Assembly (NCBI GenBank): GCA_022616075.1
Contig: JAKEFK010000374.1
Coordinates: forward strand, 8,560 to 72,559
Origin: a bacterium
GTDB taxonomy: Bacteria; Acidobacteriota; HRBIN11; JAKEFK01
DNA: 64,000 bases
Reading direction: 5' to 3'
Positions within the stretch are counted from its first letter, which is position 1. Each line of letters starts with the position of its first letter. The notes under the pieces are model-generated. The model saw only the letters and a program-made list of their open reading frames with translations, had not been told where the DNA came from and did not search any database. Positions 896 through 39,638 of the stretch are shown here, in pieces. Made by a program: the position numbers and the translations under genes.

Positions 896-3061
896 CTAAT
901 TAATGTAACCGAGCGCTTTCAGCTGCTCCCGCAGTTCATCACTTTCTTTTTTGTCCTGAGCACCTTTTACCAGCTCCGTGGGCGTGACCGATTTCTGGAT
1001 ATACGCAGAAAGGAGAGCTTTCATTGATTGCATGGTTCTGGGTGCGGTCGCACTCAGGTCGTTCTTTTCCTCGGGATCCTTACGTAAATCGTAAAAAGAT
1101 TGCTGCCCTTTCTGTTTATCGAACACCATCTTAAATTCGTTGCTTTGAATTCCCCATTTGGCTTCATTACCGTAAGTTAGTTCGTAATAGATCGTGCGTC
1201 GCGACCGCTTTGCGCTGCCGGGTGGCTCCAACAAACTGATGCCATCAATCGGATTCCTAATTTCAGCGCCCATGAGAGCCGCTAAAGTGGGATAGATATC
1301 AACGAGGGAAACGAGGTCCGTTCGTTCTTCCTGCTTCTTACCCGGAAGACTTAAAATCAAGGGAACTGAGATTTCCTCTTTGTGAAGAGTTTTCCCGTGG
1401 CCGAAAGTATTATCCCGGTCAAAAAACATTTCTCCATGATCTCCGAAAATCAGGATCACTGTATTTTTGTCAAGGCCTAGTTGTTTCAATTTCCTCATCA
1501 ATAGGCCAAAATTCTGATCGTAGAAATAGACTTCGGCATTGTAACACTGTCGAACGAATTCTTTTTGTTGCTCGGTTGGTATAAGCTTGCCGCCCACCAC
1601 TTTGTCGAGCCATTCCATAGTTATATGCGGAGGCTGATCCAGAGCAGGCTTTGGAAACAGTTTTCTGAAGACATCTGCAGGAGGATGAAAAGGTTCATGG
1701 ACGGTATAGGAATGTAAAAACAGGAAAAACGGACGATTCGAGTTGGTCCCGATCCATTGTTGCGCATTATCCAGTGTTGCAACACGATTATGCGACTTTT
1801 CAGGATTCTCAAGGTATTCTTGAAATCCCTGTTCAAAGCCATAAAAGCCGGATACGAATCCGCCATCTGTGATACCCGCGGTGTAATACCCTGCTTGATG
1901 GGCAACTTCAGCGATTGTATTCAGTTCGCGTGGAATCAGTTTGGTTCTCACAATCTGATATGTGGGTCTGGACACCTGGTGCGAGGCAACATAGAGGCCA
2001 GTCATCACCGAAGTATGGGAGGAAAGCGTACTTGGGAAAGTACAGTATGCATTTCTGTAAACAATCGACTGTTTCGCGAAAGCGGCAAGATTGGGAGCAA
2101 AACCCGAAAACACGCGGTCAGCGCGAAGTGTGTCAATCGATATCAGAATGATATTCGGTTTGTTTGTCATCGAAGCAACATCGTAGATTTCTGGAGAACT
2201 CCAGGCGATGTAGGAATCCAGGTTACTGGATGGAGATTCAGACTTTAATTCCAATCTCACTTGTTTGCCGGCAAAATCGCTCAGATCTACTGATTCATCT
2301 TTCCATTTCGCATCTTTCGGAGAAGAATGCATGGTCCTTCGGAGTAATTCCTTTGAACCCCACTTGGTGTGGATGATGACGCTGTATACGAATTGAGTCT
2401 GTTGAGGAGTCTCCTTTTTTCTCGAAGGCACTCCAATACCAAAGAAGAGCCGCGGTTTTTGCGCAGGAAGCGTAACCTGAAAGATTATGTTCGAAGCCGC
2501 GCGGATAGCGAGTGAAGAACGAGTATCTTTGAAAAGCGTGGAGCGACCCCATAGATAGGATGACGTTTGAAGATCGCGGAAATCGGCATAAGGAGAAGCT
2601 GCGGCAGGATCTGCGCCGTCAAATTGAAATATCAGCTGCTTGACAGTCGGCTTGCTTAAATCCCTGGAGGAAAATCTTAACTGATACTGTTTCCATTCCG
2701 GAGTCAACCGGAAAACTGCAATTTGTTTGTTTTGTACGGTGATTTTTAAATTCCGGTCGACAGCAGAACGAGCTTGAAACTTCAGCCGGAATCCCTGTAT
2801 TTTCCTTTGTGCTTCAGGAAAAAGGAAGATCGCCCGTCTATCGGATGCAGAAATAAAATTCGTGCCAGTCGTCCAGCCTTCTCCTTGAAAATCTTGAAAT
2901 CCTGAAGATGTGATCGGCACATCGGACTTGATTTCTGTTGATGGATCCTCCAATAATTCGTGAAGGCGAATCAGTGGTGGACCTGTTCGCTTTTCTTCCT
3001 TCCGGCAACCGAGGAAACTAAAGATGCAAATAAGAACAATTACGAACAGTTTGCGAATCAT
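896..3061 (-). CDS. Lipoprotein, alkaline-phosphatase-superfamily sulfatase-like hydrolase/transferase (N-terminal unknown domain plus C-terminal sulfatase-like domain)
   Basis: Signal plus lipobox (FSFLGC). NIILISIDTLRADR metal-binding block and DHGEMF block. Lacks a clean C-x-P-x-R formylglycine motif (CTFPSTLSSHTS). Confidence 0.7.
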   Translation of the reverse strand: MIRKLFVIVLICIFSFLGCRKEEKRTGPPLIRLHELLEDPSTEIKSDVPITSSGFQDFQGEGWTTGTNFISASDRRAIFLFPEAQRKIQGFRLKFQARSAVDRNLKITVQNKQIAVFRLTPEWKQYQLRFSSRDLSKPTVKQLIFQFDGADPAAASPYADFRDLQTSSYLWGRSTLFKDTRSSLAIRAASNIIFQVTLPAQKPRLFFGIGVPSRKKETPQQTQFVYSVIIHTKWGSKELLRRTMHSSPKDAKWKDESVDLSDFAGKQVRLELKSESPSSNLDSYIAWSSPEIYDVASMTNKPNIILISIDTLRADRVFSGFAPNLAAFAKQSIVYRNAYCTFPSTLSSHTSVMTGLYVASHQVSRPTYQIVRTKLIPRELNTIAEVAHQAGYYTAGITDGGFVSGFYGFEQGFQEYLENPEKSHNRVATLDNAQQWIGTNSNRPFFLFLHSYTVHEPFHPPADVFRKLFPKPALDQPPHITMEWLDKVVGGKLIPTEQQKEFVRQCYNAEVYFYDQNFGLLMRKLKQLGLDKNTVILIFGDHGEMFFDRDNTFGHGKTLHKEEISVPLILSLPGKKQEERTDLVSLVDIYPTLAALMGAEIRNPIDGISLLEPPGSAKRSRRTIYYELTYGNEAKWGIQSNEFKMVFDKQKGQQSFYDLRKDPEEKNDLSATAPRTMQSMKALLSAYIQKSVTPTELVKGAQDKKESDELREQLKALGYIN

Positions 3062-4683
3062 TCGGAAATGTAACCCAGAGTTTTTAGTTGTTCTATGATT
3101 TCCCGGTCGGCCCCCGTACCGATAGAATCGAAATCCCTGTTTTCATTGTTCGGGCCATAACTCGCGATCTTCTTAGACTCTCGCCGCGGGAATGCCGAGC
3201 TGTATAGTTCTAACGGCACCTTGCCCGCCATGTCGGATGCTACCGGTAATCCATAACGATTTAGAACCAACGGGCAGACGTCATAAATAGAAAATCCATT
3301 TTGTTCGTGATTCTGTTTAAACTCCCGGCCGCTGAAAACATAAATTCCCTCGCGTTCATGATACGCAACCGCTCGTTCGTTCCCCGTATGTCCTTTTATG
3401 TGCGTCTTAAATCCGTGATCGCTGATAACCAGGGCTGTAACATCAGGAGGCGCGATCTCCAGAAAGCGACCGATCTGTTCATCCACGTAAACATAATAAT
3501 TCTCCACAATATTATGGAAATCCTTAACTTCTTCCGGATCAATCGGAGGCCAGGATTCTTCAGGCTTCATATGAAACCAGTACGAATGCTGAGAGAAATC
3601 AATGCCACGCAAATAAAGAAAAAACACATCCGGTTGGAAAGATGAATACAAGTCGAGACCTGCCTCTACGTATGCGGAATCTTGAAGATAGACCGGAAAA
3701 AGACGACGATTTAGAATCCGGTGTTTACGATACGCCATCGTGTGAGGATTGAGTTTTTCGAATTGCGGATCCAAAGGAAAGGAAGTAAATCGCTTGCATT
3801 CGGCTACGTATTTTTGCTTTCGGCTCTCGAAAACCGATTCGAAATAGGATTGGACCTCGGGAGGATAAATCGAAAGCATCCTTTCTCGATCAGACATCTT
3901 GGAGTGGATCGCCCGATCAGAAATCATGAATCCATTCACCGACTCAACAGGCCAGGTTACGAACCATCCAATCACACCGATTGTCAGCGAAGATTTTTCG
4001 GAAAGGATATTCCAGATGCGTTTGGTCCGGATCTGACCGGAATGAACGGGACGTTTCTTTTTATCCAGAAAGTCCAGAATTCCATGCTGTTGCGGGGATT
4101 GGCCTGTCGCAATCGAAGTCCAGACAACCGGGGAAAGCGTCCTGGGGATGGAAATCAATTCTCCATAACTTCCGTTCCGCATCAGTTTTTGAATATGAGG
4201 AAGACGGTTCTCCTTGACCAGTTTCTTCATTACACGCCACGTAGCCCCATCCAGCGCAAAGACCAAAGTTTTTGGATGCTCACGCCCTTCTGAAAAACGA
4301 AGATAATCAATCACCAGGTCCGGTTGTGAAAATTGAAAGCGTAGCCAGGCCTGCGCGGCCAATTCGTTTGAAGAGTGACTCCAACGATGCCTGAAACGTC
4401 CCCCTTTTACCGGAATATCTACATTTTTCCCGGCCGACAAAATACGGACGGTGCTTCCTTTAGAATAGGTTCCTTCTAACTCAATTGTCAGTTTTGAACC
4501 GGGATGCCTGAGTACGACGCACGTCGCATCCCCACGAACATTCAATTTCGCAGGAAGATTCTGGATCCGTCCCTGTGTCGAAAATGCGCCGATCCAGAAT
4601 CCTTCGACACCGGATTTCTGAGAGGCACGACAACCAGTAAACAGAAACAATGCGAGCAATGCTGCGGAAAAAACACGCGTCAT
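3058..4683 (-). CDS. Lipoprotein, type I phosphodiesterase/nucleotide pyrophosphatase-like (AlkP superfamily)
   Basis: Lipobox LFTGC. LVFALDGATW and ISDHGF blocks typical of NPP/AlkP core. 4-nt overlap with the upstream gene suggests an operon. Confidence 0.7.
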   Translation of the reverse strand: MTRVFSAALLALFLFTGCRASQKSGVEGFWIGAFSTQGRIQNLPAKLNVRGDATCVVLRHPGSKLTIELEGTYSKGSTVRILSAGKNVDIPVKGGRFRHRWSHSSNELAAQAWLRFQFSQPDLVIDYLRFSEGREHPKTLVFALDGATWRVMKKLVKENRLPHIQKLMRNGSYGELISIPRTLSPVVWTSIATGQSPQQHGILDFLDKKKRPVHSGQIRTKRIWNILSEKSSLTIGVIGWFVTWPVESVNGFMISDRAIHSKMSDRERMLSIYPPEVQSYFESVFESRKQKYVAECKRFTSFPLDPQFEKLNPHTMAYRKHRILNRRLFPVYLQDSAYVEAGLDLYSSFQPDVFFLYLRGIDFSQHSYWFHMKPEESWPPIDPEEVKDFHNIVENYYVYVDEQIGRFLEIAPPDVTALVISDHGFKTHIKGHTGNERAVAYHEREGIYVFSGREFKQNHEQNGFSIYDVCPLVLNRYGLPVASDMAGKVPLELYSSAFPRRESKKIASYGPNNENRDFDSIGTGADREIIEQLKTLGYISE

Positions 4684-4903: not shown

Positions 4904-6979
4904 TTACTGGATGCGAAATCTCAGGAATTGGAGGCCGACAGGATCAGAATTTTCGAATCGAAGTGTAAGCAGGCGATGAGAGTCCTTAACTTGAGACCCG
5001 TTAATCGTGGCACGAATGGTTTTACGGTCACCCTCCAGGCGCGCCTCTCGAATCAGCGTTTCATCCGCCAGCAACTTCAGATGAATCACACGTGATTCTG
5101 TCAACAAACGCAACTCAACATCCAGATTTTGCTTTTCCGAAACGGCAGGTAGCAAAAGACGTGCTTCACTTTTTTTACAGACAAACAGCCTTTTTTCTTT
5201 CACGTCGTCCGGTTCCCAGTTTTCATACAAAAACAAAGAGAGAGCATCATCACGTCCTCGAAGCTCATAAACGGACGCCGTTAGCCTGGGTAACTCGTAG
5301 ACGAGGATTTCTTGTCCTCTATTTAGAAGTTGCGCGTCAGGAAAAAGCCGCAAAAGCAAAGTTTCATAGCCATTGGACTTACTGTATGGTGGAAACAGAG
5401 CAACATAACGCAAGTCGAAAAGGCTTCGGAATACGGGAGCGATTTCGCTATCTCGTTTCAAAAGAGAGTCCGTCACGATTCGATCCAGTGTGATCCGTCT
5501 GAAGATGCGCGCCACGGGAATCTCCGAGAAAAATCTGGTCTGTTGAAAAGGAACTCGTGAAACCCGTCCGTTGAACAGCTTTTGCCGGTGAATGATTTGG
5601 TACGCGACCTCCTTGGAAGCCATGCCATCAAAACGGTATGGAAGTGTTAAGAGAGAGGAACCAGGATTTTGTCCTATCGTATGAAAAACATGCGAATTTG
5701 TCAGAGGAAGCGTGTATACAGGTATAGGGGACAATTCAACGACTAACAGGAGAAATAAAACACCAATCAGAATCTTCGCTACACGGGAATTGTTCCTGAG
5801 CGCAACAAGAACTGTATAAGCGGCTAAGATCGCAATACAAAACGTGACGATGATACTGAATCGCGTGGGCACGCGTACATGGTTGATCAGGGGTATTTTC
5901 ATAAGCAACGAGTAGGGAAGAATGAATTCGAAAGAACCCAATCCCACTATAGGACCAAGTGACAGCAGCATAAAGAAAATGCCTACACCCGCAATCAACA
6001 AAAGCAGTTTCTGTCTTTGTCGAATAGCGAGAATGAATCCAATGGATCCAGTAATCAACGCCACTAACCCGGCCGACAACCTGGTATACCTGTCTCTCAC
6101 CACTTCCCTTGGCAAATGTTTTGCGATCCATGGATTCATCACTCCGATATTTACATAATCGTCAAGGCTAACCGCAGTTTTTCTGGCCAGATCTTCCGCA
6201 TCCATGGATCGGAGAATGCCTGCCTGCTGGTCCTTGTAAAAGCGAATTAAAATCGGTGTTAAACAAATAATACCGATGACGGCAGCCAATAAAACATTGC
6301 GCAGCAAAGTGATTTTCCTCCATTCGGGTAGAAACAACATGCCTGCCAGCAACAATATTCCAAGAATCAAAATCAGATATACGCTGTAGTACTGATTTGA
6401 ATAATGGGCCAACGCAAAGAAGAACCCGAGCGCAGCAGCATAACGGAGCCTGGCTGTATCTACTAGCCGAAAAAAGCTCCAAAGCCCGAGTGGAATCCAT
6501 TGAGTGATGGCGAAATTCACATGGCCTCCCATCCGAACCATACGGAATGGGCAAAACGCGAATGCGATCGCGGCAAAAAGGGCCGCAACAGAACTTTTTG
6601 TCAAGTCCCGCACTAACAACCATGTGCCAAAGGCCGTAAGAAACGTAGAGAGCAAAATCGCAAGATTGGTCTGTGCAATATCGTTGAAAAAAGGAGAGAA
6701 TAGCAAGCCGGTTACACTGTTAAACTCCGTATAAGAGTGGAGTGCGAGGCTGGTTCCTATGGGAAAGAAGATAGAATCCGTGTAGTAGGGATCTTCGCCT
6801 CCCAAAATCTGTTGCCGGAACACGAAATTATTCCAGGGAAATTGCCATGCATCCATACCGCTGCCGATTAAGCGATCAGATAAGTGAAATGGGGCCGGAT
6901 AACTAAACAGAATTGTTAACAGTAGAAGCGAGAGTGCAGCGAAAGTGGGATTCTCTAAAGAAAATTTACGTTTCACCAT
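4904..6979 (-). CDS. Large polytopic membrane protein with C-terminal soluble domain (GT-C/YfhO-like glycosyltransferase candidate)
   Basis: 691 aa. About 12 hydrophobic segments in the N-terminal 420 aa, then a soluble C-terminal region. No diagnostic catalytic motif recognised. Confidence 0.55.
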   Translation of the reverse strand: MVKRKFSLENPTFAALSLLLLTILFSYPAPFHLSDRLIGSGMDAWQFPWNNFVFRQQILGGEDPYYTDSIFFPIGTSLALHSYTEFNSVTGLLFSPFFNDIAQTNLAILLSTFLTAFGTWLLVRDLTKSSVAALFAAIAFAFCPFRMVRMGGHVNFAITQWIPLGLWSFFRLVDTARLRYAAALGFFFALAHYSNQYYSVYLILILGILLLAGMLFLPEWRKITLLRNVLLAAVIGIICLTPILIRFYKDQQAGILRSMDAEDLARKTAVSLDDYVNIGVMNPWIAKHLPREVVRDRYTRLSAGLVALITGSIGFILAIRQRQKLLLLIAGVGIFFMLLSLGPIVGLGSFEFILPYSLLMKIPLINHVRVPTRFSIIVTFCIAILAAYTVLVALRNNSRVAKILIGVLFLLLVVELSPIPVYTLPLTNSHVFHTIGQNPGSSLLTLPYRFDGMASKEVAYQIIHRQKLFNGRVSRVPFQQTRFFSEIPVARIFRRITLDRIVTDSLLKRDSEIAPVFRSLFDLRYVALFPPYSKSNGYETLLLRLFPDAQLLNRGQEILVYELPRLTASVYELRGRDDALSLFLYENWEPDDVKEKRLFVCKKSEARLLLPAVSEKQNLDVELRLLTESRVIHLKLLADETLIREARLEGDRKTIRATINGSQVKDSHRLLTLRFENSDPVGLQFLRFRIQ

Positions 6980-14158: not shown

Positions 14159-15538
14159 ATGCGCACACATTTTCTGGCGATTGGCTGCCTTGCGCTCGTG
14201 TTGGTTTGCCTGGGTCTTTTCTATGGCAGGCCTGTGATCCAGAACGATGGAATCTCCTATTACGCCCTGGTTGTCAGTCTTCTGGAGGATCACGACTTCA
14301 ATCTCGAAAACCAGCGCGCAAAATACCGGGAAGTGCGAGTCATTCCAAAGCCCAATTCGAAAGTAGCTTCTTACTATTCTTGCGGCATCGCTTTCCTGTA
14401 CGCTCCTTTTCTCTATACTATGGATTTGTTTCCGGCGATTCGCGAAGCGCGGCCCTATGCGCAAAACGTTAAATTTCCCTTTTCTCACAATCTTGGAATT
14501 TTTCTTGGGAGTGTGTTTTATTCTTTTCTTTCCATCATACTAGCCTACTATTTCCTCATCCATCATCAACAACTCTCCCCGGGCAGGTCTCTGTTCCTGG
14601 CACTTTCTTGCTTCCTTGGAACGCCCTTGCTGTTCTACACATTTACGGTTCCTTCCTTCACTCATGCATCTGATACATTTCTGGTGACTGCGGCATTCCT
14701 GCTGGCCATTTCGAAGAACAAACTACAGGTCGGGTTCATTCGTTTTCGAAATGTGCTGCTCGGCTTTTTTCTGGCCTTCTCGGTGCTGTTGCGAAACAAC
14801 AATATTGTTATCGTGCCTGTCATGGTTTTAGGAGTGCTCTATTTTGAACGGAAAGAAGGCTGGAGACAGGCGATTCACACAAGTCTGGAAATTTTTGGAG
14901 GAGCGCTGCCAGTTCTGATCGTTCACGCTTTCTTCAATTTGAGCCAGTATGGAAAATTGATTGCCACGGGATATGTCATCGACGTTCAGCAAAGAGCTCA
15001 GAAACGTTTTTTCCGTTTCTTCTGGATCTTTTTTCATCCAGTTCCAGGGATCTACCCGTGGTCTCCTGTTGCTCTCATTGCATCGATCGGACTTGTTCTC
15101 GCAGCAATCAAAAAACGGTCTGAGGCATTACTCGCAGTGGCCGTCGCGATCGTGGTTATCATCAGCATCCGTTTTGCCGCAATCATTTTTCCCGGAAGCA
15201 CTTTTGGTCAAAGACTCCTGACGCACCTTTATATTTTTTGGGTATTCGGACTGTCGGAAGTGTTCAAAAGGTCGAGGAAACTTACGATTGGTTTGACTGC
15301 AGCCTGTTTGGTGTGGACCTTCCTGCTGTTTAACACGTATTTCATTTTGACGGGCATGCGACATAGCAAGATCATGGCGATCAAGGGGGGCTCTTCACCT
15401 CATGTGTGGCTTCAAACGGCGATGGAATCTTATCAGGAGGCAAAAACGAAAGGTGAGACCACAAACCCTGTTGAGTTCTGGTACAGGAATTTAGGCGCCA
15501 AACCCTATCCCGTCATCCTGCATCTTTTGCGAATGTAA
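14159..15538 (+). CDS. Polytopic membrane protein, GT-C (ArnT/PMT-like) glycosyltransferase candidate
   Basis: 459 aa, about 11 TM. N-terminal loop with a DGISYY-type acidic patch, as in GT39/GT83 enzymes. Confidence 0.55.
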   Translation: MRTHFLAIGCLALVLVCLGLFYGRPVIQNDGISYYALVVSLLEDHDFNLENQRAKYREVRVIPKPNSKVASYYSCGIAFLYAPFLYTMDLFPAIREARPYAQNVKFPFSHNLGIFLGSVFYSFLSIILAYYFLIHHQQLSPGRSLFLALSCFLGTPLLFYTFTVPSFTHASDTFLVTAAFLLAISKNKLQVGFIRFRNVLLGFFLAFSVLLRNNNIVIVPVMVLGVLYFERKEGWRQAIHTSLEIFGGALPVLIVHAFFNLSQYGKLIATGYVIDVQQRAQKRFFRFFWIFFHPVPGIYPWSPVALIASIGLVLAAIKKRSEALLAVAVAIVVIISIRFAAIIFPGSTFGQRLLTHLYIFWVFGLSEVFKRSRKLTIGLTAACLVWTFLLFNTYFILTGMRHSKIMAIKGGSSPHVWLQTAMESYQEAKTKGETTNPVEFWYRNLGAKPYPVILHLLRM

Positions 15539-15584
15539 CGCGGGCGTCTCGCCTGCGAGAGCGCAGACGGGACGTCCGCGCTAC
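15535..15584. repeat. REP-like palindrome family A; supplies both convergent stop codons
   Basis: gTAAcgcgggcgtctcgcctgcgagagcgcagacgggacgtccgcgCTAc. TAA terminates the plus-strand gene and CTA (minus-strand TAG) terminates the radical SAM gene. Arms pair with G.U wobbles. Confidence 0.7.
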
Positions 15585-16654
15585 TTTCTGTTCAAGATTA
15601 TTGACTCCGTAAATGCGCGGGCCAGTTGCAGGGGTTGATAGACAATGCTTGGCCACAGGAAAATCTCGTTCGTGCAATAGCATTCTTTGCACTCAATCGA
15701 ACGTCGCAGAGCCTGAGCTTCCGGGGATTGCCAGATTTCATGAAATGTTTTGTGGCGAAGATTTCCCAGTGGTGGATGGGTCTCGCAAACCGAAACATCT
15801 CCATTTGCATAAACCACGCCGCTGAGCACACCTGCGCGGCACGGTACGACTTGCTGTCTTTCCTCAGCAGTGCGAATTTTAGCCCATTGCAACATCGGTT
15901 CTACGGATCCACCGAAACGTCCTTTTTCGCGCGGCGCCCACAAATGACGTACGTACTCGTATAACTTTGTATAGGCGAGCAGTTCCGGACCCTGCAGGGA
16001 TGGATTCTTCCGGTCGCCTCGAATCAACGCGAGGTTGTGATGATCCATCGCCGGACACCGCTCATACAAATAAGTCGTCAGCTTTTGGATCTCTTCAAGG
16101 TTGCCGGAAGTCGCGGTGGAAATTGCATGAATGCGCAACCGCGGATCGTGCTTCTGCATCTCCGACAGTTGATCGTACGTCTCCATGGCTTTTTGAAAGG
16201 ACCGCGGATTTCCGCGAAATGTATTGTGAAACTCTTCGGTGCCATCCAGCGACAACTCCGCCGCGAAAAGCTCCAGGTCAGGTTCATTCTCAAGAATATC
16301 TGTGAGGTAACGAACGGTGCGATCCGTGAAGTAACCACTGGTCGGACAATAAATCTGTTTGACTCCATTATTCCGGATGAAAGCGCGGCAAATTTCGGCG
16401 AATTCAGCTCGAAGGAAGGGCTCGCCTCCTCCGAGATTCAAATTCTCCACTTTTCCCAATCCGCGTGAAAGCGCGAGGATTTCCTCGAGTGTCAAATCAT
16501 CCTTTTGATTCAGGCTGCGCCAGTAAAAACAGTGCTCACATGTGAGATTGCAAATCGAAGTGACAAAAAGAATTAAGAACGGAGGAGTTCCGGGAGTCCC
16601 GTAATTCTTCGAAGAGATTCGCGCGTGGCGAATCGCGCGGTTCACAAAGCTCAT
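15581..16654 (-). CDS. Radical SAM enzyme with C-terminal SPASM/twitch-like cysteine cluster
   Basis: [10 protein letters not shown] (Cx3Cx2C). C-terminal CRAG…CETH…CKECYC cysteines. Confidence 0.8.
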
Positions 16655-17574
16655 GCCTTCCCTGCCGGCTTTGCAGTCCAGTAGCCGGCAAATTCGCCAA
16701 CAGACCAGAACAAAGTCAAAAGAATTAGATAGGGAAAAGCTTTCATGAATTCAGGGATCAATCTCTTTTTCTGTAATATAGCACGGATTTTCCGGCCCAG
16801 CAGAATAAATGGAAGAAGCGGTGATAGCGCGAGAAACGTCAGACGTTGAGCGATACCGCAATGCTGCGCGCGAGTGCCGGAAAAGGAACGCCCCCAAACA
16901 TAGCGTTCCTTCAGCGCTTTTGCAAGACTCAGATTCTGGCGGTGCTGATACACGATCAACTCCGGCGCCAGCCAAAGCGTTTTTCCACTTTGTAACAAAT
17001 GGTCGTGGAAGGTCGTTTCGTGAAAGGAATTTTGCCACAGGGATCGAGTATTCTCCAGCGTCTCACGTTTGTAGGAGACGTTTGCATCCGTAAGAAAGTA
17101 AGAAGGGCCGGAGGGAAGCGGATTTTGATAACGTCCAAAATCAGAAAAATAAACGGCCCAGTTGAGTGCCCGATCCACATCGTTTTCCATCGAACCTCCG
17201 ATGGCCGCATGTGGTTGCTGATGAAACTCTACGAGTCGTCGCGCCCAATCTGGATGAGCGCGTCCGTGATCTTCGATCAATGCAAGTATTTTCCCGCGCG
17301 CGATGCTCAAGCCCCGCGCGCGCAATTCATCGTGATGCTCCCGGCTTGCTCCATTCCGGTTGACAATCGTGCGTAAGTCGTCGATCTTCAAAAATTGCAC
17401 ATCGGGAAAATCCTGTTCCAGAGCTGGAATTGCAACATCCGATCCATCGTGGGGAACAACAATTTCCATTGAGGGTGGATCATTTTGTGTCCGCAGAGAT
17501 TCCAAACACTTGCGCAAATGATGGACATCACTTACCACAGCAACGATTACCGATAATTCCGGTTCTTGATCCAT
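16651..17574 (-). CDS. Glycosyltransferase family 2 (E-D-H in place of canonical DxD)
   Basis: [22 protein letters not shown]-terminal GT-A fold block. LIEDH. 4-nt overlap with the radical SAM gene. Confidence 0.7.
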
Positions 17575-17577
17575 GCG

Positions 17578-18492
17578 TTATTCCACTTTCATCAAAGCAT
17601 CGCCAGGTCCGAACAAATAGCCCATCAGCTCACCGGCAATATAAACAACGGCCGCAGGAATCAATAAAGGAAACGTTCGGACATATTTGCCTACCCGGTG
17701 TTTCTTTTGCAACACTCTGGCAGAAATTCTCGCCAGCAGCAAGGCCGGAAGCGCAGGTGAAACCAGAGTATAAATAAAGCGCTTTCCGGGCGGCATCACT
17801 TTCCTGCGGGCGCCGGCATACGCGCGGCTGAATAAATAGCGTTGGCCCAGATAATATCCGTATGGAAACGGACCTCGATGATACACAACCATTGCGGGCA
17901 CAGATTTTAAGATGGCACCCTCCTCTGCAAGTCTAGAGTATAGAAACGCCTCCCAATAACCTTCCTTGAGCTGAGATAGATGCTTTAAGAGAATCTCTTT
18001 GCGAAAAGCGACGTTGTTCCCGGGTAAATCATAAACATTTCCCTGCGGCATCGGTGGCATGTAAGCGTTGTACTCCACAAAATAAGTGACCCAATCTCGA
18101 AGACGTACGTAGTTATCATCCTGAACCGTGCCTCCGATTGCTGCAACTTGAGGATCGAATGAGTTTGCAATAGTGTTCACCCAGTTTTTTGCTGCAGTGC
18201 AATGTTCTTCTATGATCGCAACGAAATCTCCACGAGCATTTTCTACTCCAATTCTTCGTAACTCCGGAATCGTTTTCCTTGAATCCTGCGGAAATATTTT
18301 TACGAAAGGATATTTTTGCTGGAGGCGATTCCGGGTTCCTTCGCCGTGACAATCGACAACAAGCACTTCAAAATCGGGCTCATCTTCTTGTTGAGCGAGT
18401 GAAGCGATGCAATCATCGACGAAAGGTGGGCCCACAACCGAAGCGACAACCACCGAAACTTTCGGGGTCAAACGATCAAGAGCTCCAGACAT
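17578..18492 (-). CDS. Glycosyltransferase family 2, paralog of 16651-17574
   Basis: VSVVVASVVGPPFVDDCIASL. IIEEH. Similar C-terminal basic/hydrophobic tail. Confidence 0.7.
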   Translation of the reverse strand: MSGALDRLTPKVSVVVASVVGPPFVDDCIASLAQQEDEPDFEVLVVDCHGEGTRNRLQQKYPFVKIFPQDSRKTIPELRRIGVENARGDFVAIIEEHCTAAKNWVNTIANSFDPQVAAIGGTVQDDNYVRLRDWVTYFVEYNAYMPPMPQGNVYDLPGNNVAFRKEILLKHLSQLKEGYWEAFLYSRLAEEGAILKSVPAMVVYHRGPFPYGYYLGQRYLFSRAYAGARRKVMPPGKRFIYTLVSPALPALLLARISARVLQKKHRVGKYVRTFPLLIPAAVVYIAGELMGYLFGPGDALMKVE

Positions 18493-19195
18493 CAGTTTTT
18501 GGATCCCAGAATGGACCGGTCAGCCCAATCTGTCCGAAGATTTCCACCATCTCTTCTGCGGCAGGACGTCTTGATTCCACCGTTAAACGATTTTCGTACC
18601 ATTGCAATGCAAGAAACCAGAGCTGATGCAGATTCAAAATGGGACGCTTCGGAGTCCCTTTGGATTCGCACCACCGGTCGACATTCTCTTCCGACCGGAA
18701 GAGAAGCATTGTGGATCACGTAAAGATAACATCCTTCCACCAAAGAGCAGCAGGTACAGCGAAGTGCACCGCACATTCCTGCGGCACCACAGAACCATTT
18801 TTCACTTCAAGCAGGATCGGCTCATTCGTATAACCATCCGTGGCATTTACAATTGCATCCTTTTGCAGGGCAGCAGCAACGCCCAATCCGTCCCAGATAC
18901 AATTTGCAAAATAAGACTTCCCTTCAATCTCCACGCGGAAGGAAGTTGGTATACCGGAAAAAGGGGGCGCCATGCGGATTCGCGAAGGATCCTGAGGTTC
19001 TGGAACAAGAAGGCGTTTCGCGTGCAATCGCTGATACGCCTCGTCCACTTGATCATTTGAAACTCCAAGCATCCGGGCAACTTCGGCTGAGGAAGGTGCT
19101 TTTGTTGTTTCCGCGATCGTCTGATAAATCTGCAGTTTTACTCTTGTATCAAAATCCACGAATTCATCATATATGAGTACCAAAGTATTGAGCAA
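18476..19195 (-). CDS. MerB-family (organomercurial-lyase-like) protein interrupted by an in-frame UGA at 18718-18716; candidate selenoprotein or pseudogene
   Basis: The 159-aa and 77-aa ORFs are in one frame, separated by a single TGA. FANCIWDGL resembles MerB WCALDTL (Cys96/Asp99). ECAVHF resembles MerB CCHVHFF. Confidence 0.5.
18684..18705 (-). promoter_or_regulatory. SECIS-like mRNA hairpin: 9-bp stem UUCUCUUCC/GGAAGAGAA with GGUC tetraloop, starting 11 nt 3' of the in-frame UGA
   Basis: Perfect complementarity read directly. The loop sequence and its distance from the UGA are as in the E. coli fdhF SECIS minimal hairpin. Confidence 0.45.
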
Positions 19196-19309
19196 TAAGA
19201 AATGAGTATTCCTCAGCAGGTCTCATCGCTCATTACTCATCACTCTGGCACCGAAAAGGAGTGCGGGCGCAATTTCTTGCGCCCTTTGATGATGAGGAAT
19301 TATAAAGGT

Positions 19310-20773
19310 CTAAAGCTCTTCGTCTTTTTCGGCTCCGAGTCTACAGAGGTCTTCCAGATATTGAACACCGCCGGAAACATTTTGCGTTTCGTGCGGTGGA
19401 GGGCATCCTTCCGTGCGGATTGGCATCACCGTTTGTTGCCGCCGGTTACGGGGATCCATTCTTTCAATCGGAAGCGGTATATTTTTAAAAGCCGCTCGCA
19501 TTTTGCTAAATTCATCCGTTTGGACAGCCGGTTCGCGCCGCTCGGTCAGAAAAGTAATTTCGCGTCGCGCGCCGACCATTCGTTCATAGAATGGAGGATG
19601 AGTCCTGAACCAGGATGCTCCGCTTGCGTACCCTTTTTCAGTGGCCATTTTATCGAAGAAACGAGAAAAGCCACGAGGATCATAACCGGCATGCCATGCA
19701 TATTGCACACCAAGTTGATCTGCTTCTAATTCGAATTCGCGGCTTTTTCCAAGGATATTCAGGTTCAATGCAAGTCCCAGGCCCATCGCTCCATAATTGA
19801 GACCGTAGTAGAGACCGGGACTGCCCGCAACAGCTCCTGCAATTCTTGCCGCCTGAATTAAAATGTTCGCCATATTCGCTTTTCGCTGCAGTTTGTGCCC
19901 GTGGCGCGCGGCAGCATGTGCGATTTCGTGCGAGATGACGCCTGCGACTTCCGCTTCATTATCAGCAGCCTCCAGCAATCCGCGGTTAATGAACAGGAAA
20001 CCGCCCGGCAGCGCAAAGGCATTGATCTCTTTGGAATTGAGAACGGTGACTTTTACAGGAACCTGCAAATCGGAATGCTTTGCCAGATTCTCTGTAAGAT
20101 TCGACACATAATTCTGAACGATTGAGCTTTCCAATTCAGGTGGCATTGCGCCTTGCCGCCTCAACTGAATGATCGCTTCCAATCCGGTTTTTACATCGTC
20201 TTCCTGGTCTTCGGCAACAACTCGATAACCGATGTCATTTACATTGGCCCATCGCCGGTTGCGGTAAGAACCGGAGGAGAGCTCCTGGTTGATCCGCTGA
20301 CGCTCAGCCGGCCAGTGTTGAATGAGGTCCACTTTGGCTTTGCGATTGTCGTACGCAACTGGAATTGCCTGATCGGAGAGAATGTCAGCCCTGGCTTTCA
20401 GGATGCGTAAGTTTTGGATTTGACAGTGTCGCTGATGGCGCTCACCTTCATCGATTCTGCCGCCGACCATGTACAAATCACCGCTTGCTGAACGGAGCTC
20501 ATTTTCATATTGACGGCTCCGGTTCTCATACACATCAACACAGTAATCCTTCGATTCATCCAGATAATCCTTCATTTTTTCAAGCTGAGCAGATGTGTAG
20601 CGAAAACGTGAGGCTTCCTCGAAAAGTTCCGCATAAGGCTGGCGCGTTATGTCCAGTACTTCAGGAGCCAGTGGTCGTTGCGGCAGTGCTTTCGGCCGGC
20701 CCGCGCATCCTGCAAGAACGATAGGTGCAACAATCAGGAAAAGAACAAGACCATGACAAATTGCCGGCTTCAA
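19310..20773 (-). CDS. M48-family zinc metalloprotease lipoprotein
   Basis: Lipobox LAGCAG. HEIAHAAARHG (HExxH). Confidence 0.75.
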   Translation of the reverse strand: MKPAICHGLVLFLIVAPIVLAGCAGRPKALPQRPLAPEVLDITRQPYAELFEEASRFRYTSAQLEKMKDYLDESKDYCVDVYENRSRQYENELRSASGDLYMVGGRIDEGERHQRHCQIQNLRILKARADILSDQAIPVAYDNRKAKVDLIQHWPAERQRINQELSSGSYRNRRWANVNDIGYRVVAEDQEDDVKTGLEAIIQLRRQGAMPPELESSIVQNYVSNLTENLAKHSDLQVPVKVTVLNSKEINAFALPGGFLFINRGLLEAADNEAEVAGVISHEIAHAAARHGHKLQRKANMANILIQAARIAGAVAGSPGLYYGLNYGAMGLGLALNLNILGKSREFELEADQLGVQYAWHAGYDPRGFSRFFDKMATEKGYASGASWFRTHPPFYERMVGARREITFLTERREPAVQTDEFSKMRAAFKNIPLPIERMDPRNRRQQTVMPIRTEGCPPPHETQNVSGGVQYLEDLCRLGAEKDEEL

Positions 20774-21885: not shown

Positions 21886-24800
21886 TTACTTTGCGTCTTT
21901 GCGACTTTGCGTTGAAGATTGATCGATGTGCCGAAGACCCTCGCGAGCGGTTTCATTTTCCGGTTCCAACTCGAGTACCTGCATGAAAAGCTCCTGTGCG
22001 CCGAGTATATCTCCCTGATTCAGGATTTCGCGGGCGGCGCTCAGGATGTTTTCCACTTCGCTGTGCCGCAGCTGATGTTGCAGAGTTTCTAACTCCACTT
22101 CGGTAATCTTCAAATCGTCTTCTGTAAGGGACCCCGTTTTGTTGATATCTATTTTCGGACTTCTGATTCGCTGGTGTTTTTCAGGAAGCACTCGATGAAA
22201 GCTCTCTAAAGCGCCAAGTGCTCCCTCACGGTCGCCTGATTCCAAATACTGCAGACCCTTCTGAAGAATCACTCCCAGATCGGCCTCCTTTTGCTTTTTT
22301 ATTTCCACCGACTCGGCAAAATCTCTCAAAACGGTTTCATACTCCAATAACAGTAAAGACCTGGAAAATAAACGATCCATGCGGGCGCGCATTCTGGATA
22401 TATCCCCTGATTCAATTTCAATCACCAGCATCGGCAACTCATCTATAATGCTGTCTCCATCTTCCGCATAAGCGGTTCGGCTTGCAGTCTCCTTCAAACG
22501 AATCAATAAATCCGGCAAATGTTTAAACTCTCTTTTTACGACAAGTTTCACAACGGCGCGTATCGTTTCAAGCACGTTCCGGTTTTCGGCTTCCGCTGCT
22601 TCTATCTGCGCTCTCAACTGCATCGCGGGTTCCATTTCCGGCTGCTGATCCAAAACTTGATCCAGCTTTTCGAGCGCTTGATGGTAAAGTCGTTGATGAT
22701 AAAGCAATGCCGCTTCTTCCAACTCTCCCTGGATGCTAGTCCGGAACGCTTCATCCTTTTGTATTTCAGCATCTAACTTATTAGAAACATAACGAACCTG
22801 TTCGGCCAGATCGTCGAAAGAAAATTCTGCCAGCGCTTTCCTGGACTTATCCAGTTTTCGGTGCGCTTCCTCGAAGTTGCCATAGAAAATTAGCTCTTCC
22901 GCCTCGGCCAGCATAGCAATAATGGATAGGCGGATTTGTCGCTCTTTTTTCAGACGCTGCTGAGCTTGCTCAATCCATTCTTTCAGATAAGGTTCATCCG
23001 ACAGCGAGCTTGCTTTTTTCCAGCATTCGATGGCTTTCTGCCATCTGTGCCTGTCATAGTATTCTTTTCCTTTTTGAAGCGCGGACTGGAGGCGCTGGGC
23101 AGTGTGCTGCGCGTTGATCGCTTCTTCAATGGAACTTTTTAGTTCCAGGGCTTCCTGTTCAACAACATCTTTTTCCAGAAGGGGAGAAATCCTTTCCAGG
23201 GCTTCGGCATATGCACCCTGCTTATATAATCCCTTGATTTTTCTTAATTCTTCCGATACGTCTTCAAGATGTTTTTGTTGTTCGCGCGTGTGAAGAAGGA
23301 TTTCAGCTTCAAGAGTTTCAATCTGTCTCTCCCATTCGATCAGGCGATACCCCGGTTGAATCGACTTCAACAATTTTTCCACCTTGTTCTGCGCTTCCTG
23401 CCAATGTTCTTTCAACACGAGCGAGTAACACTCCTTCAATTGCCGGAGCAGCTCTTCTTGAATGTAGAACTCTTCTCTTAAATGGTTCTCCGCGTCGCTT
23501 AGCGCTTGCTGTATTTCCTCCGAATCCGGAAATAGTTGCAAGATTTCGTTCCAGCATTCCATGGCACGTTCCCATTCAAGCCCGGAAGCGAACTCTTGCG
23601 CCTCCTGCAACCTCGCTCCGCGATATGCGCTCAAAATTTCTAACCGAAGTTCGTCCGCTTCCGGCAAAGAGATTTGACTGCGAAGTGTGTCGATCCTGTT
23701 CAGGGCATCAACATAATGGCCCGAATCCAGCAAATTTCTGGTTTCCGAAAAGGCCTCCGTAAGCAATTTGTCCCGCTCAAATAGTTTTTCGGCCGCTGAC
23801 GTTTCAATTTCACCGAATACCGATTGATGCGGCTCCAACCAGCCGAATGGATCTTTTGTCAACAACTTATTCAAGATTCGAGGGACCTGATCATATTGTT
23901 CCGCCTGAAAGGCAGACTCCAGGGATACGACTGCTTTTCGGATCCGATCGATTTCCTTCCGGCAAGTATCGATTCCCAAATTTGCATGCAGTTTTGTCAG
24001 CAGCTTCGAGGCGACCTCAAAATCACAAAAAGAAAGCGGCTGCACGGCTAACTCCAGCCCCTGTTTGATCTGATCTTGAACTTTCTCCCACCTGCTTTCC
24101 AGAATCTGATCGCGCAACTCTTTAGCGGCTCGATGCGAAGAATTTTCTTCCAGAATTTCCTGGGCAATTCCAAAAGCCTGCTCCTCGTCTCCCTGCGCAA
24201 ACAGCGACCGGGCCTCATCCATTTTCCTGTTGTACTTCTCTGTAAATTCGTCTTCGCGGGCAAGCTGAATCCGTTGCTGCATGCTGATGATGTCCGGGTC
24301 ATTTGGTTGCAAATGCCACGCGGACTCCAAGCTGGCCATGGCCGCCAGGTAATCCTTCCGCTCCAGCCGGTCTTCGGCTTCCTGCAAGTAAGATCCGACC
24401 GCTTGTTTTTTCCCCGCGATCAACTGGTCCTGCAGTTTTTTGAGCTGATTGAGAACGCCGGTACCTTCCAGTTGAATATTACCGATTCGTTCCAGGACGA
24501 ACTGCGCCTGCGCAAAATTCCCTTTGCGGATAAAGAGTCTGGTGTGGCGAATGTCCCGCTTTGTCTTTTCGGAAAGCGCGTTTTTTAACAGTTTTTTCCA
24601 GCGCGGGTTGTCCGGTTGATCTTTCAACAAGGATTGAAGGACCTTGATCGCTTGAGCGAATTTATGCTCCGCAATCAACTTGTGAGTCAATTGCTCACTT
24701 GCCTGCAACTGCGGATCAGAGACAGGCTGACCAAATGAAGCGAGATCGTTCAGTATTTCCTCGGCGCTCTGGTAGCGGTTCTCGGGCTCTTTTTGCAAAG

Positions 24801-26445
24801 CCTTCATGATGATCCGTTCGAGATCAGCAGAAAAAGCCGGAACGATCTCAGAAGGTCTGGGAGGATCCGCTTTTAAATGAGCATAAATGACGGCTACAGG
24901 AGTCGGACCATCGAAAGGAAGACGTCCGGTTAACAAGCTGTACATGAGAACGCCTATGGAATACAAATCGGCGCGCGCATCGACCGCTTTTTCTTCAAAC
25001 ACTTCCGGAGCCATGTAATGCGGAGATCCAAGAAGCGACCCGGTCTGCGTAATCCTGGAATAATCAGCCGATAAAGAGATGCCGAAATCCATTATTTTCA
25101 GGCGCGACCGCACATCGATCATGATGTTTTGCGGTTTCAAATCCCGGTGAATAATGCCGGCGCGGTGCGTTTCCCGGATCGCATGCAATACTTGCTCTAG
25201 AATCGGGATCGATGTTTCCGCCGGAAGCCGTCCTTGCGTACGCATGTAATCTGCAAGTGTCCTTCCTTCTACAAACTCCATGGACACGTAATGGACACCG
25301 TTTTGCTCGCCGATGTCGTAAACCCGGCACACATTGGGATGAGTTACTTTGCGCGCAAGGATAACTTCCCTTTTGAATCTGGCCAGTGTTTTTTCGTCTT
25401 CGGCGATGTCGAGTGAAACGGTTTTTAAAGCAACTGGGATTTCCAAAATCTTATCCAGCGCTTTGAAGACCATTCCCATTTCGCCGTGACCGAGTTTGCC
25501 TTCAATTAAGTAGCGTCCCGCAAAGACTTCGCCCGTTTCCGGTTCGGAAAGAAGGGGTACAAGCGGAACCGGTTGAGTCGTAGACAACTCCAACTCCGCC
25601 AGAAATTCGTCGATCGTCTGATGACGTTCTTCGCGACGTTTTGCCAGAGCTTTTAAAATTAGACGGTCTAACGATTCCGGAAAGGTTCCCGCGGGAAAAT
25701 AAAAGGAAGGCGGACTCGGCATTTCATGCGCATGTTTCATGAAATAACCTTGAGGACTCTTCGAGTAAAAGGGCAGATTCCCGGTTAACATTTGATAAAA
25801 AGTTACGGCGAGCGAATATATGTCCGATCGACCGTCCAACGTCTGTCTTTCTCCGGAAAGTGTGCACTGTTCCGGACTGCAGTATTCCGGTTTTCCGATG
25901 AACAGATTGACCGCCGTTAATTGCAAGGAAGTCTCCAACAGAGGTTTCGCTATTCCAAAGTCAATTACCTTTGTGACTTCCGGTTCCCGGTCATTTAAGA
26001 GAATGAGATTATCCGGAGAAATATCCCGGTGGATGATTCCATTTTGGTGAGCACACTGTAGTCCGGATGCCGCTTGCCGCATGATCCTGATCGCGTCCGA
26101 AATCGGAATTCGTCCGACTCTGCGGATCCTGTGCCATACACTCTCTCCCCTGATCAATTCCATCACCATAAAAAAAGAATCGGTTTCGAGAGTTCCAAAT
26201 TCGTAAAGCTGCACGAGATTCGCGTGACGAAGTTTGGTGAGAATCTTTGCTTCACGGATGAAACGATCGATAAAACTGCTGCCGCCGGCTAGCCGGGCGT
26301 GAATCACCTTGATCGCTCGCTCTTCGTCCAGAAATGCGTGGCGTGCCCTGTAGACGGCGCCCATTCCGCCTTTTCCTAAGAGTTCGAGGATTTCGTATTC
26401 CCGGATCCTGGAACCGATCAAAGAGTCTTTTTGCGGCTCAGCCAT
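21886..26445 (-). CDS. Giant tandem Ser/Thr protein kinase (two Hanks-type kinase domains) fused to about 1000 aa of TPR/helical repeats
   Basis: Domain 1: GKGGMGAVY, AIKVI, HRDISPDN, DFG, SPE. Domain 2: GHGEMGMVF, ALKTV, HRDLKPQN, DFG, APE. Confidence 0.85.
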   Translation of the reverse strand: MAEPQKDSLIGSRIREYEILELLGKGGMGAVYRARHAFLDEERAIKVIHARLAGGSSFIDRFIREAKILTKLRHANLVQLYEFGTLETDSFFMVMELIRGESVWHRIRRVGRIPISDAIRIMRQAASGLQCAHQNGIIHRDISPDNLILLNDREPEVTKVIDFGIAKPLLETSLQLTAVNLFIGKPEYCSPEQCTLSGERQTLDGRSDIYSLAVTFYQMLTGNLPFYSKSPQGYFMKHAHEMPSPPSFYFPAGTFPESLDRLILKALAKRREERHQTIDEFLAELELSTTQPVPLVPLLSEPETGEVFAGRYLIEGKLGHGEMGMVFKALDKILEIPVALKTVSLDIAEDEKTLARFKREVILARKVTHPNVCRVYDIGEQNGVHYVSMEFVEGRTLADYMRTQGRLPAETSIPILEQVLHAIRETHRAGIIHRDLKPQNIMIDVRSRLKIMDFGISLSADYSRITQTGSLLGSPHYMAPEVFEEKAVDARADLYSIGVLMYSLLTGRLPFDGPTPVAVIYAHLKADPPRPSEIVPAFSADLERIIMKALQKEPENRYQSAEEILNDLASFGQPVSDPQLQASEQLTHKLIAEHKFAQAIKVLQSLLKDQPDNPRWKKLLKNALSEKTKRDIRHTRLFIRKGNFAQAQFVLERIGNIQLEGTGVLNQLKKLQDQLIAGKKQAVGSYLQEAEDRLERKDYLAAMASLESAWHLQPNDPDIISMQQRIQLAREDEFTEKYNRKMDEARSLFAQGDEEQAFGIAQEILEENSSHRAAKELRDQILESRWEKVQDQIKQGLELAVQPLSFCDFEVASKLLTKLHANLGIDTCRKEIDRIRKAVVSLESAFQAEQYDQVPRILNKLLTKDPFGWLEPHQSVFGEIETSAAEKLFERDKLLTEAFSETRNLLDSGHYVDALNRIDTLRSQISLPEADELRLEILSAYRGARLQEAQEFASGLEWERAMECWNEILQLFPDSEEIQQALSDAENHLREEFYIQEELLRQLKECYSLVLKEHWQEAQNKVEKLLKSIQPGYRLIEWERQIETLEAEILLHTREQQKHLEDVSEELRKIKGLYKQGAYAEALERISPLLEKDVVEQEALELKSSIEEAINAQHTAQRLQSALQKGKEYYDRHRWQKAIECWKKASSLSDEPYLKEWIEQAQQRLKKERQIRLSIIAMLAEAEELIFYGNFEEAHRKLDKSRKALAEFSFDDLAEQVRYVSNKLDAEIQKDEAFRTSIQGELEEAALLYHQRLYHQALEKLDQVLDQQPEMEPAMQLRAQIEAAEAENRNVLETIRAVVKLVVKREFKHLPDLLIRLKETASRTAYAEDGDSIIDELPMLVIEIESGDISRMRARMDRLFSRSLLLLEYETVLRDFAESVEIKKQKEADLGVILQKGLQYLESGDREGALGALESFHRVLPEKHQRIRSPKIDINKTGSLTEDDLKITEVELETLQHQLRHSEVENILSAAREILNQGDILGAQELFMQVLELEPENETAREGLRHIDQSSTQSRKDAK

Positions 26446-34574: not shown

Positions 34575-34608
34575 GCCGCTATTTTGCCCTATTCTAAGCT
34601 GGAAAACT

Positions 34609-36120: not shown

Positions 36121-36161
36121 TTTGGTAAAATAGCGCAAGAGCGACGCTAAGGAGTGGTGCA

Positions 36162-36602: not shown

Positions 36603-36628
36603 TTTGCGGCAGGAAAATGAATCGGTGT

Positions 36629-37492: not shown

Positions 37493-37503
37493 AGCTCTAA
37501 GAT

Positions 37504-37583
37504 TGCGGGCAGGATGCCCGCGGCCCGTAATGCAGGCTGGAAGCCTGCGCTCCATATGCCCGCGGACGAGACGTCCGCGCTAC
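37504..37583. repeat. REP-like composite palindromic element (family A right arm plus extra hairpins)
   Basis: …CGCGGACGAGACGTCCGCGCTAC plus the GCAGGCTGGAAGCCTGC hairpin. Confidence 0.5.
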
Positions 37584-37590
37584 TTTGTTT

Positions 37591-39012: not shown

Positions 39013-39018
39013 CGAAGT

Positions 39019-39588: not shown

Positions 39589-39608
39589 TGAAACGTTAGT
39601 ATAAGCAA

Positions 39609-39638
39609 TTTTGCCGGCTAGAAGCCGGCGTTACAAAC
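39609..39638. repeat. Family B short copy (GCCGGCTAGAAGCCGGCGTTACAAAC)
   Basis: Matches the right arm of the 8771 and 21708 elements. Confidence 0.5.

Follow-up and report, generated by a model that had tools for sequence, protein, structure and literature searches.

Parts of the locus described here resemble several known systems. SkfB is the thioether-forming Twitch radical S-adenosylmethionine (SAM) enzyme of the sporulation killing factor. BtrN, BlsE and SpeY, and also DesII, belong to small-molecule antibiotic pathways; they combine a radical SAM core with a single four-cysteine domain for an auxiliary cluster, and their genes lie amid carbohydrate biosynthesis genes. PcManGT and hyaluronan synthase have a minimal cellulose-synthase-like fold, and PcManGT, the subject of a structure paper in 2020, reportedly depends on dolichyl phosphate and belongs to a lipid-linked glycan pathway. 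MerB is the organomercurial lyase, and SaoL is a MerB-like selenoprotein of the SAO system (Haft & Gwadz, bioRxiv 10.1101/2022.07.06.499078). Here we analyse a 64-kb stretch of acidobacterial DNA (GCA_022616075.1, contig JAKEFK010000374.1, positions 8,560 to 72,559; hereafter the window) and, within it, a block of four minus-strand genes at 15581-19195, which encode a MerB-like protein with an in-frame TGA, two family-2 glycosyltransferases (GT2a and GT2b) and a radical SAM enzyme. We suggest, with a probability of roughly 70%, that two unrelated units form one tightly packed and probably co-transcribed block only in this lineage, the block being a chance fusion. The first unit would be a detached module of a widespread cell-envelope glycan pathway, apparently conserved and uncharacterised, and the second a MerB-like selenoprotein which, judging from its homologues, is widespread and has gone unrecognised.

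The four-gene block and its closest relatives

The four open reading frames (ORFs) of the block are co-directional, and both the gene content and the tight packing are real; co-transcription is probable. The MerB-like gene (18476-19159, 227 codons; PF03243, 1.6e-28, 99.7 bits) carries a T-U-S-T motif with the in-frame UGA at 18716-18718, which we read as selenocysteine (Sec) from the conservation of the TGA and from homologues with cysteine. It overlaps the gene of GT2a (17578-18492, 304 aa, E-E-H motif; PF00535, 3.5e-13) by 17 nt (18476-18492). GT2a is followed, after a 3-nt gap (17575-17577), by GT2b (16651-17574, 307 aa, E-D-H motif; PF00535, 2.3e-12), which overlaps the radical SAM gene (15581-16654, 357 aa; Pfam Radical_SAM 1.9e-14, SPASM 7.4e-10) by 4 nt (16651-16654). 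Both glycosyltransferases are membrane-associated. The original prediction, made from the letters of this stretch, had listed the same four genes, and all four ORFs are confirmed. It had given overlaps of 17, 0 and 4 nt, the first and last of which are correct while the middle one is the 3-nt gap. It had also placed the start of the MerB-like gene at TTG 19195; since homologues begin with M/V-DFDT, GTG 19159 is most likely the real start.

SkfB is the best match of the radical SAM protein both in sequence (E=1.6e-8) and in structure, and all four auxiliary-cluster cysteines align with those of its twitch domain, the CxC pair included. However, SkfB has about 100 extra N-terminal residues and an adjacent precursor peptide gene, and no precursor was found here. 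BlsE and DesII are also among the best structural matches, with BtrN and SpeY lower in the list; unlike SkfB, none of these four shows significant sequence similarity to the radical SAM protein, and their antibiotic pathways differ from the Wzx-type envelope glycan loci of the present family. GT2a has in common with PcManGT and hyaluronan synthase that long C-terminal helices come after the GT-A domain, but identity is only 12-18%, and here two tandem paralogues carry E-x-H in place of DxD.

The MerB-like protein shares with SaoL the PF03243 domain, Sec at the position of the catalytic Cys159 and database entries which end at the UGA. It reaches, however, only 45.3 bits against the NF040728 cutoff of 140, and its motif is T-U, whereas that of SaoL is C-U. 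In the loci examined, members of the nine-gene SAO set such as the ABC transporter and SaoE were not seen as neighbours, and the named hosts are Thermoanaerobaculia and unclassified soil metagenome-assembled genomes (MAGs), while SAO has been described from anaerobes. With MerB itself the protein has in common a Pfam MerB domain above cutoff and the conserved equivalents of Cys96 and Asp99. It differs from MerB at the third catalytic position, where the residue read as Sec replaces Cys159, in scores below both equivalog cutoffs (39.2 against 193 and 29.5 against 200) and in its surroundings, where merA, merT, merP and a mercury-type merR are missing.

The GT2 and radical SAM genes in envelope-glycan loci

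The radical SAM protein has the CX3CX2C motif at C35/C39/C42, and the only invariant C-terminal cysteines of the family are C272, C290, C325 and C327 (41 sequences). The Pfam SPASM match covers a domain with just these four, and does not have the full seven-cysteine SPASM motif with its two auxiliary clusters. The presence of four rather than seven cysteines thus predicts a single auxiliary cluster and indicates a Twitch-type enzyme. Of the earlier label, radical SAM/SPASM, the radical SAM part stands, and the full SPASM domain does not. As the CX3CX2C motif starts at residue 35, no N-terminal leader-recognition domain is expected, and neither the enzyme nor its neighbours have a PqqD-like domain according to Pfam.

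We regard the protein as a member of an uncurated, strongly conserved family of glycan loci. No NCBIfam model exceeds 60 bits with it, against cutoffs of 170-725, and the subfamilies to which the original prediction had pointed (anSME, SCIFF, Mft) offer no curated model near its cutoff. The best hidden Markov models (HMMs) for maturases of RiPPs (peptides made by the ribosome and then modified post-translationally) give 35-60 bits with cutoffs of 265-725; MftC scores 45 against 265 and SkfB 36 against 300, and the values for MftF are 45 and 31 against 280. Sequence and profile searches of the PDB return SkfB and generic radical SAM cores only. The family has more than 3,700 homologues, the top 120 clusters of which are 67-95% identical; identity across phyla is about 65-79%, and a scan with one genome per species finds relatives in 495 species genomes. 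We found no description of the family, or of a radical SAM–GT2 glycan locus, in the literature searched, and to our knowledge radical SAM chemistry on envelope polysaccharides has been little explored.

The gene neighbourhoods point to glycan synthesis. We counted genes within 10 kb in the 80 best radical SAM loci (63-74% identity), which come mostly from Acidobacteriota and Gemmatimonadota, with single MAGs labelled Chloroflexota, Anaerolineae and Myxococcota. At least one glycan gene is present in 79 of them, and no partner recurs more often than a Wzx-like flippase (62/80). Members of the GT2a/GT2b family occur in 39 loci and are directly adjacent to the radical SAM gene in about 16. PMT_2 enzymes (29/80), family-4 glycosyltransferases (GT4s; 24-29/80) and a deacetylase (22/80) follow, and the partners also include sugar epimerases/dehydratases and GT-C enzymes. 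Two relatives (L007 and L008) have the order GT4-GT4-PMT_2-ICMT-like-FAD oxidoreductase-GT2-GT2-radical SAM-Wzx, where FAD is flavin adenine dinucleotide. Terriglobales loci are arranged as Wzx (divergent)-radical SAM-GT2-GT2-GT2-GT4-GT4 and, further on, a deacetylase, with a carbamoyltransferase and PMT_2 in addition. The MerB-like gene and the gene of the M48 metallopeptidase, which lies upstream of the block in the window, are found in none of the 80 loci. Of the synteny to which the original prediction had looked, the GT2–radical SAM association is thus retained, often as direct neighbours, and that of the MerB-like and M48 genes is lost among relatives.

The window itself holds the remainder of this conserved locus at 33147-46060, as assigned by Pfam and NCBIfam. 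It encodes a PMT_2 GT-C enzyme (33147-34574), an LA_3751-like GT-C enzyme (34456-36120, plus strand), a GNAT protein (36629-37555), an FAD oxidoreductase (37591-39012), an ICMT/PEMT-like methyltransferase (39019-39588), a polysaccharide deacetylase (39631-40389), an SDR epimerase/dehydratase (40386-41363), two GT4s (41360-42718 and 42637-43902) and a PRK07208 FAD oxidoreductase (44216-46060). The two oxidoreductases are paralogous and of the PRK07208 type. Orthologues of the genes in this segment recur beside the radical SAM gene in relatives, and the segment lies about 15 kb away from the GT2-GT2-radical SAM cassette; hence the glycan locus is split in this genome. There is no Wzx homologue within the 64-kb window. 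The earlier view that the set matches no standard polysaccharide locus finds no support, since both the loci of relatives and the 33-46 kb region of the window hold glycan genes.

The two glycosyltransferases had been called paralogous, and they are: GT2a and GT2b share 31% identity over 295 residues (E=9e-48), and GT2b aligns full-length with the GT2a family. Their PF00535 scores are 47.6 and 50.3 bits, with a cutoff of 23.3 bits. The E-E-H and E-D-H motifs, also pointed out earlier, align with the DxD of a solved GT2 (6p61). A canonical DxD is found in neither protein, its position being occupied by E95-E96-H97 in GT2a and by E-D-H in GT2b, and among 40 family members neither E95 nor H97 varies, with E96 nearly invariant. 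In the AlphaFold2 (AF2) model of GT2a (predicted local distance difference test, pLDDT, 93) helices at 211-294 follow the GT-A domain, and the best Foldseek matches are the membrane mannosyltransferase PcManGT and hyaluronan synthase, with template-modelling (TM) scores of 0.61-0.64. This architecture fits a lipid-linked or membrane-proximal acceptor. Orthologues of GT2b, 32-59% identical, adjoin GT2a and/or the radical SAM gene in relatives.

In many Gemmatimonadota loci (L045, L046, L064, L072, L076, L078 and L081) the order FAD oxidoreductase-radical SAM-single GT2 recurs, the single GT2 being 32-37% identical to GT2b. From this comparison, duplication of the GT2 gene would seem to be confined to the acidobacterial form of the glycan locus.

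On the cysteine pattern, the glycan neighbourhoods, the lack of a conserved small ORF and the structure of GT2a we therefore place the GT2a-GT2b-radical SAM triad (15581-18492) in a lipid-linked envelope-glycan pathway. Observed for this unit are the protein families, the cysteine pattern, the conserved motifs, the structural matches and the surrounding genes, and from these we infer, by analogy, the substrate, the type of reaction and the order of steps. Instead of DxD, the membrane-anchored GT2 paralogues would have an E-x-H metal site, and at the cytoplasmic face they would transfer sugars to an acceptor that is lipid-linked (polyprenyl-phosphate). The CX3CX2C cluster of the radical SAM enzyme would generate the 5'-deoxyadenosyl radical, and together with the Twitch-type auxiliary cluster the enzyme may modify a sugar of the lipid-linked intermediate or of a nucleotide-sugar precursor. 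Candidate reactions are oxidation, epimerisation, dehydration and decarboxylation, by analogy with BtrN, BlsE, DesII and SpeY. The product would then be flipped by the Wzx-like flippase and transferred or decorated by the GT-C/PMT_2 enzymes, the deacetylase and the methyltransferase.

The fold of the radical SAM protein, as modelled, does not decide between a peptide and a sugar substrate. Its AF2 model (pLDDT 87) matches SkfB, BlsE, SuiB, DesII, anSME and MoaA at similar Foldseek scores, that is, a mixture of peptide and sugar enzymes. With anSME among these neighbours, the enzyme might instead mature a protein, either acting in an anSME-like manner on sulfatase-family or GT-C proteins or modifying a glycoprotein acceptor; sulfatase-family/phosphodiesterase genes are present at 896-4683 and in a few related loci, and PMT_2 enzymes can glycosylate proteins. 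We consider this improbable. Sulfatase homologues occur in just 5 of the 80 loci, the best 25 NCBIfam matches contain no anSME model, the seven-cysteine SPASM domain of the anSME type is not present, and the top partner is the Wzx-like flippase, a handler of lipid-linked glycans. As a candidate in its own right, anSME-like sulfatase maturation was rejected for the unfit cysteine pattern and the rarity of sulfatase neighbours.

Considerably less probable still is a RiPP or glycopeptide system, in which the radical SAM/SPASM enzyme crosslinks a peptide, the GT2s glycosylate it in the manner of glycocins and the M48 peptidase removes the leader. The original prediction leaned towards such chemistry, and the Pfam SPASM label of the C-terminal domain, the RiPP maturases SkfB and SuiB among the best PDB matches and the weak matches to the mycofactocin glycosyltransferase MftF (31-45 bits) would agree with it. 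But every maturase HMM stays far below its cutoff, the conserved C-terminal cysteines number just four, the position of the motif leaves no room for an N-terminal recognition domain, and the neighbours are polysaccharide genes. The block is practically without intergenic gaps, and within 4 kb of the radical SAM gene no small-ORF family is common to more than 3 of the 80 loci, in a comparison with limited sensitivity for very short or variable peptides; the earlier remark that no precursor ORF is evident holds on this wider check. A conserved terminator-like hairpin, finally, sets the M48 gene apart, and M48 is found in none of the 80 loci. The tempting natural-product annotation of the radical SAM family is thereby removed, and a glycan pathway is indicated instead.

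Several more specific candidates were rejected. These are the mycofactocin system (MftC and MftF below cutoff, no small ORFs), the S/O-glycosyltransferases of glycocins (E-x-H in place of DxD, and glycan genes rather than glycocin partners as neighbours), a hopanoid system of the HpnH/HpnI/HpnJ type (none of these models among the NCBIfam matches) and M48 as leader peptidase (conserved terminator-like hairpin between, and no M48 in orthologous loci). Terriglobales loci (L001, 4250-4669; L004, 5465-5931; L037, L053 and L061) have a DUF5989 membrane peptide of 49-59 aa and a 76-aa ORF before the carbamoyltransferase. This is the sole recurrent small ORF, and as a precursor it was set aside as too rare (3/80 loci).

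The MerB-like gene and its in-frame UGA

All four genes might also be one system, for example one in which a MerB-like selenoenzyme, the radical SAM enzyme and the GT2s act on an organometallic or selenium-containing glycoconjugate. The MerB-like and GT2a genes run in the same direction with their 17-nt overlap and no terminator between them, and the arrangement is also present in relatives at 87-100% identity. It is these relatives only, however, in which the M48-MerB-GT2 arrangement is found. MerB-like genes are missing from 80/80 radical SAM loci, and GT2 and radical SAM genes were not found at MerB-like loci outside the immediate lineage, where the neighbourhoods are heterogeneous and unrelated between genomes. 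The relatives L095 and L096, whose MerB-like protein is 65% identical to that of the window, show the order unk312-MerB-convergent LA_3751-like GT-C-unk321, which is the order of the window without M48 and without GT2a-GT2b-radical SAM. In L095 the orthologue of the convergent GT-C-like protein at 14159-15538 directly follows the MerB-like gene. With the flanks the same and the cassette and M48 absent, these are therefore lineage-specific insertions, or they have been lost in the relative. A single system of four genes is thus very unlikely, and we read the adjacency of the MerB-like gene to the cassette as a lineage-specific rearrangement.

The M48 gene (19310-20773, minus strand; BepA/LoiP-like, PF01435 1.1e-28) is a neighbour and not a member of the system. 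The original prediction had placed it upstream of the set, separated by a hairpin. The hairpin, GGGCGCAAGAAATTGCGCCC at 19265-19284 on the minus strand, is real and terminator-like; it lies 3' of the M48 gene and is kept in L009 and L094, where 7-8 T follow. This conserved GC-rich hairpin with its T-run puts M48 in a separate transcription unit.

The reading of the block as two unrelated units has to be set against several observations which weigh against it. Due to the 17-nt overlap the units are probably co-expressed here, and a functional link in this lineage is possible. The GT2 family is absent within 10 kb in 41 of the 80 radical SAM loci, so the triad is not obligatory. The closest single match of the radical SAM protein in sequence and structure, SkfB, modifies a peptide, and SuiB and anSME rank alongside sugar enzymes, so that the fold alone leaves a protein substrate possible. 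Neither the radical SAM family nor the GT2 family has a characterised member, so that the substrate and the reaction are putative. For the second unit, selA, selB, selD and tRNA-Sec were not found within the 64-kb window, in which the tRNA scan finds no tRNA at all.

The case for the second unit (18476-19159) begins with the reading frame itself. The Pfam MerB domain matches residues 79-201 of the readthrough product and spans the TGA. The equivalents of MerB C96 and D99 sit in the sequence FANCIWDG, and the UGA aligns with the catalytic cysteine of MerB2 (PDB 5c17) at position Cys159. Of the best 120 homologous clusters nearly all have a length of 147-149 aa and end exactly at the UGA, and in every MerB-like locus inspected an in-frame ORF of 75 aa follows the stop. 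Among 83 MerB-like loci, 76 extend beyond the site; all 76, at 55-90% protein identity, have TGA, never TAA or TAG, and about 75 conserved codons follow. The UGA noticed in the original prediction is thus real and meaningful. A search with the C-terminal piece returns mostly stand-alone ORFs of 70-79 aa, together with several full-length proteins of 202-235 aa; of these, P0402, P0458, P0463, P0471, P0494, P0500 and P0501 have cysteine exactly at the UGA position (T/A-C).

Immediately downstream of the UGA lies a hairpin that resembles a selenocysteine insertion sequence (SECIS), CUCUUCC-GGUC-GGAAGAG (18686-18703, minus strand). Folding and the alignment give a consensus stem of 7 bp with a GGUC loop, at +16 to +33, with one compensatory change. 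Counted from the U of the UGA, the loop is at +23 to +26, one nucleotide off its position in the E. coli fdhF SECIS. Synonymous sites in the stem are frozen (Leu CTC in 56/56, Arg CGG in 58/59 and Ser TCG in 59/59 sequences), whereas the adjoining Leu and Thr codons vary freely, with six and four codons respectively. Rfam gives no match, either for the whole window at the gathering threshold or for the SECIS region at a permissive E-value, which is uninformative, bacterial SECIS being poorly covered there.

A conserved TGA, the hairpin, frozen sites and cysteine homologues are the standard bioinformatic criteria for a selenoprotein, hence our reading of the UGA as Sec. The UGA at the Cys159 position would be decoded by means of the downstream hairpin, and the most likely activity of the protein is the cleavage of a carbon-metal bond with Cys, Asp and Sec. 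The least likely of the alternatives is that the UGA is a true stop in a pseudogene or in a split gene giving polypeptides of 147 and 75 aa: public gene calls do split the gene in this way, an invariant ATG three codons after the UGA could start the 75-aa polypeptide and no Sec machinery is seen in the window, but the codon is TGA in 76/76 homologues and aligns with a catalytic cysteine which full-length homologues retain, synonymous sites are frozen only within a hairpin at SECIS distance, and the N-terminal fragment alone would be short of one catalytic residue.

Most plausibly the gene encodes a selenoprotein, and one other than SaoL. A survey of mer genes from 2021 lists no MerB in Acidobacteria (PMC8261052), and a review of prokaryotic selenoproteins from 2026 lists SaoL as the sole MerB-like family (PMC13188914); in the literature searched we found no MerB-like selenoprotein other than SaoL. 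Public records of the same sequence illustrate how the gene is handled. In GCA_975752425.1 (CDKODR010000034.1; L174, 2433-2867) a 144-aa antisense call replaces it, and in GCA_022615055.1 (JAKEHM010000093.1; L175, 2334-3017) it is split into genes of 147 and 77 aa. Annotation of public genomes and metagenomes systematically reduces the protein, wrongly, to a fragment of 147 aa or overlooks it.

A bolder reading goes beyond the two-unit explanation, and we put it forward as tentative and on balance doubtful. The radical SAM family would be a new Twitch class acting with E-x-H GT2s on lipid-linked or polymeric envelope glycans, and the T-U MerB-like proteins would form a second and independent family of organometal-lyase selenoenzymes that is very abundant in soil bacteria. 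The reactions of the new class could include epimerisation, oxidation and C-C/C-O bond formation across Acidobacteriota and Gemmatimonadota. If the second-family part is true, the MerB-like family is invisible to gene surveys of mercury cycling, because its database entries end at the UGA. Should the enzyme cleave methylmercury or another organometal, then both the potential of soils for demethylation and the known selenoprotein set of Acidobacteriota are underestimated. The radical SAM family, present in at least 495 species genomes, offers a concrete target in the search for new radical chemistry on sugars in abundant soil phyla.

Some further features of the MerB-like family were noted. P0122, a full-length homologue of 225 aa with 57% identity to the MerB-like protein, no longer has either catalytic residue, Cys being replaced by Ser in an NSIWD motif and Sec by Gly; this family member may have become non-catalytic. 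A long imperfect hairpin of about 35 bp (19165-19243, minus strand) lies just upstream of where the MerB-like gene starts, and the whole intergenic fold there has -61.9 kcal/mol (z=-6.0). This hairpin stems from an insertion of about 47 nt, rich in TGAG repeats, which is not present in the 87-90% identical L009 and L094. Clustering of genes across the 83 MerB-like loci was noisy owing to spurious antisense ORFs, and only clade-specific neighbours emerged. In one clade among the loci L094-L173 some same-strand neighbours recur, as labelled by eye from sequence: 26 loci have a GNAT-like acetyltransferase downstream and 23 a rhodanese-like/membrane protein upstream, while a nuclease-like protein is found in 21 and a CGC-motif protein resembling DUF1573 in 16.

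Other genes of the window

On the other side of the block, the convergent gene at 14159-15538 (plus strand) encodes a GT-C-like membrane protein of the LA_3751/LA_3752 family (NCBIfam NF047440, 1.5e-9), which is of the paralogue type of orf554 in the main glycan locus. At 896-4683 and 4904-6979 there are membrane proteins of the sulfatase and phosphodiesterase families with another PMT_2 GT-C enzyme; the sulfatase/phosphodiesterase-family proteins resemble phosphoethanolamine or phosphoglycerol transferases. Genes for the modification of envelope glycoconjugates are abundant across the first 46 kb of the window. A protein of 1519 aa, in which a long TPR region comes after two Ser/Thr kinase domains, is encoded at 21886-26445 on the minus strand, and a second kinase protein, with the order Cache-HAMP-kinase, at 60271-62370.

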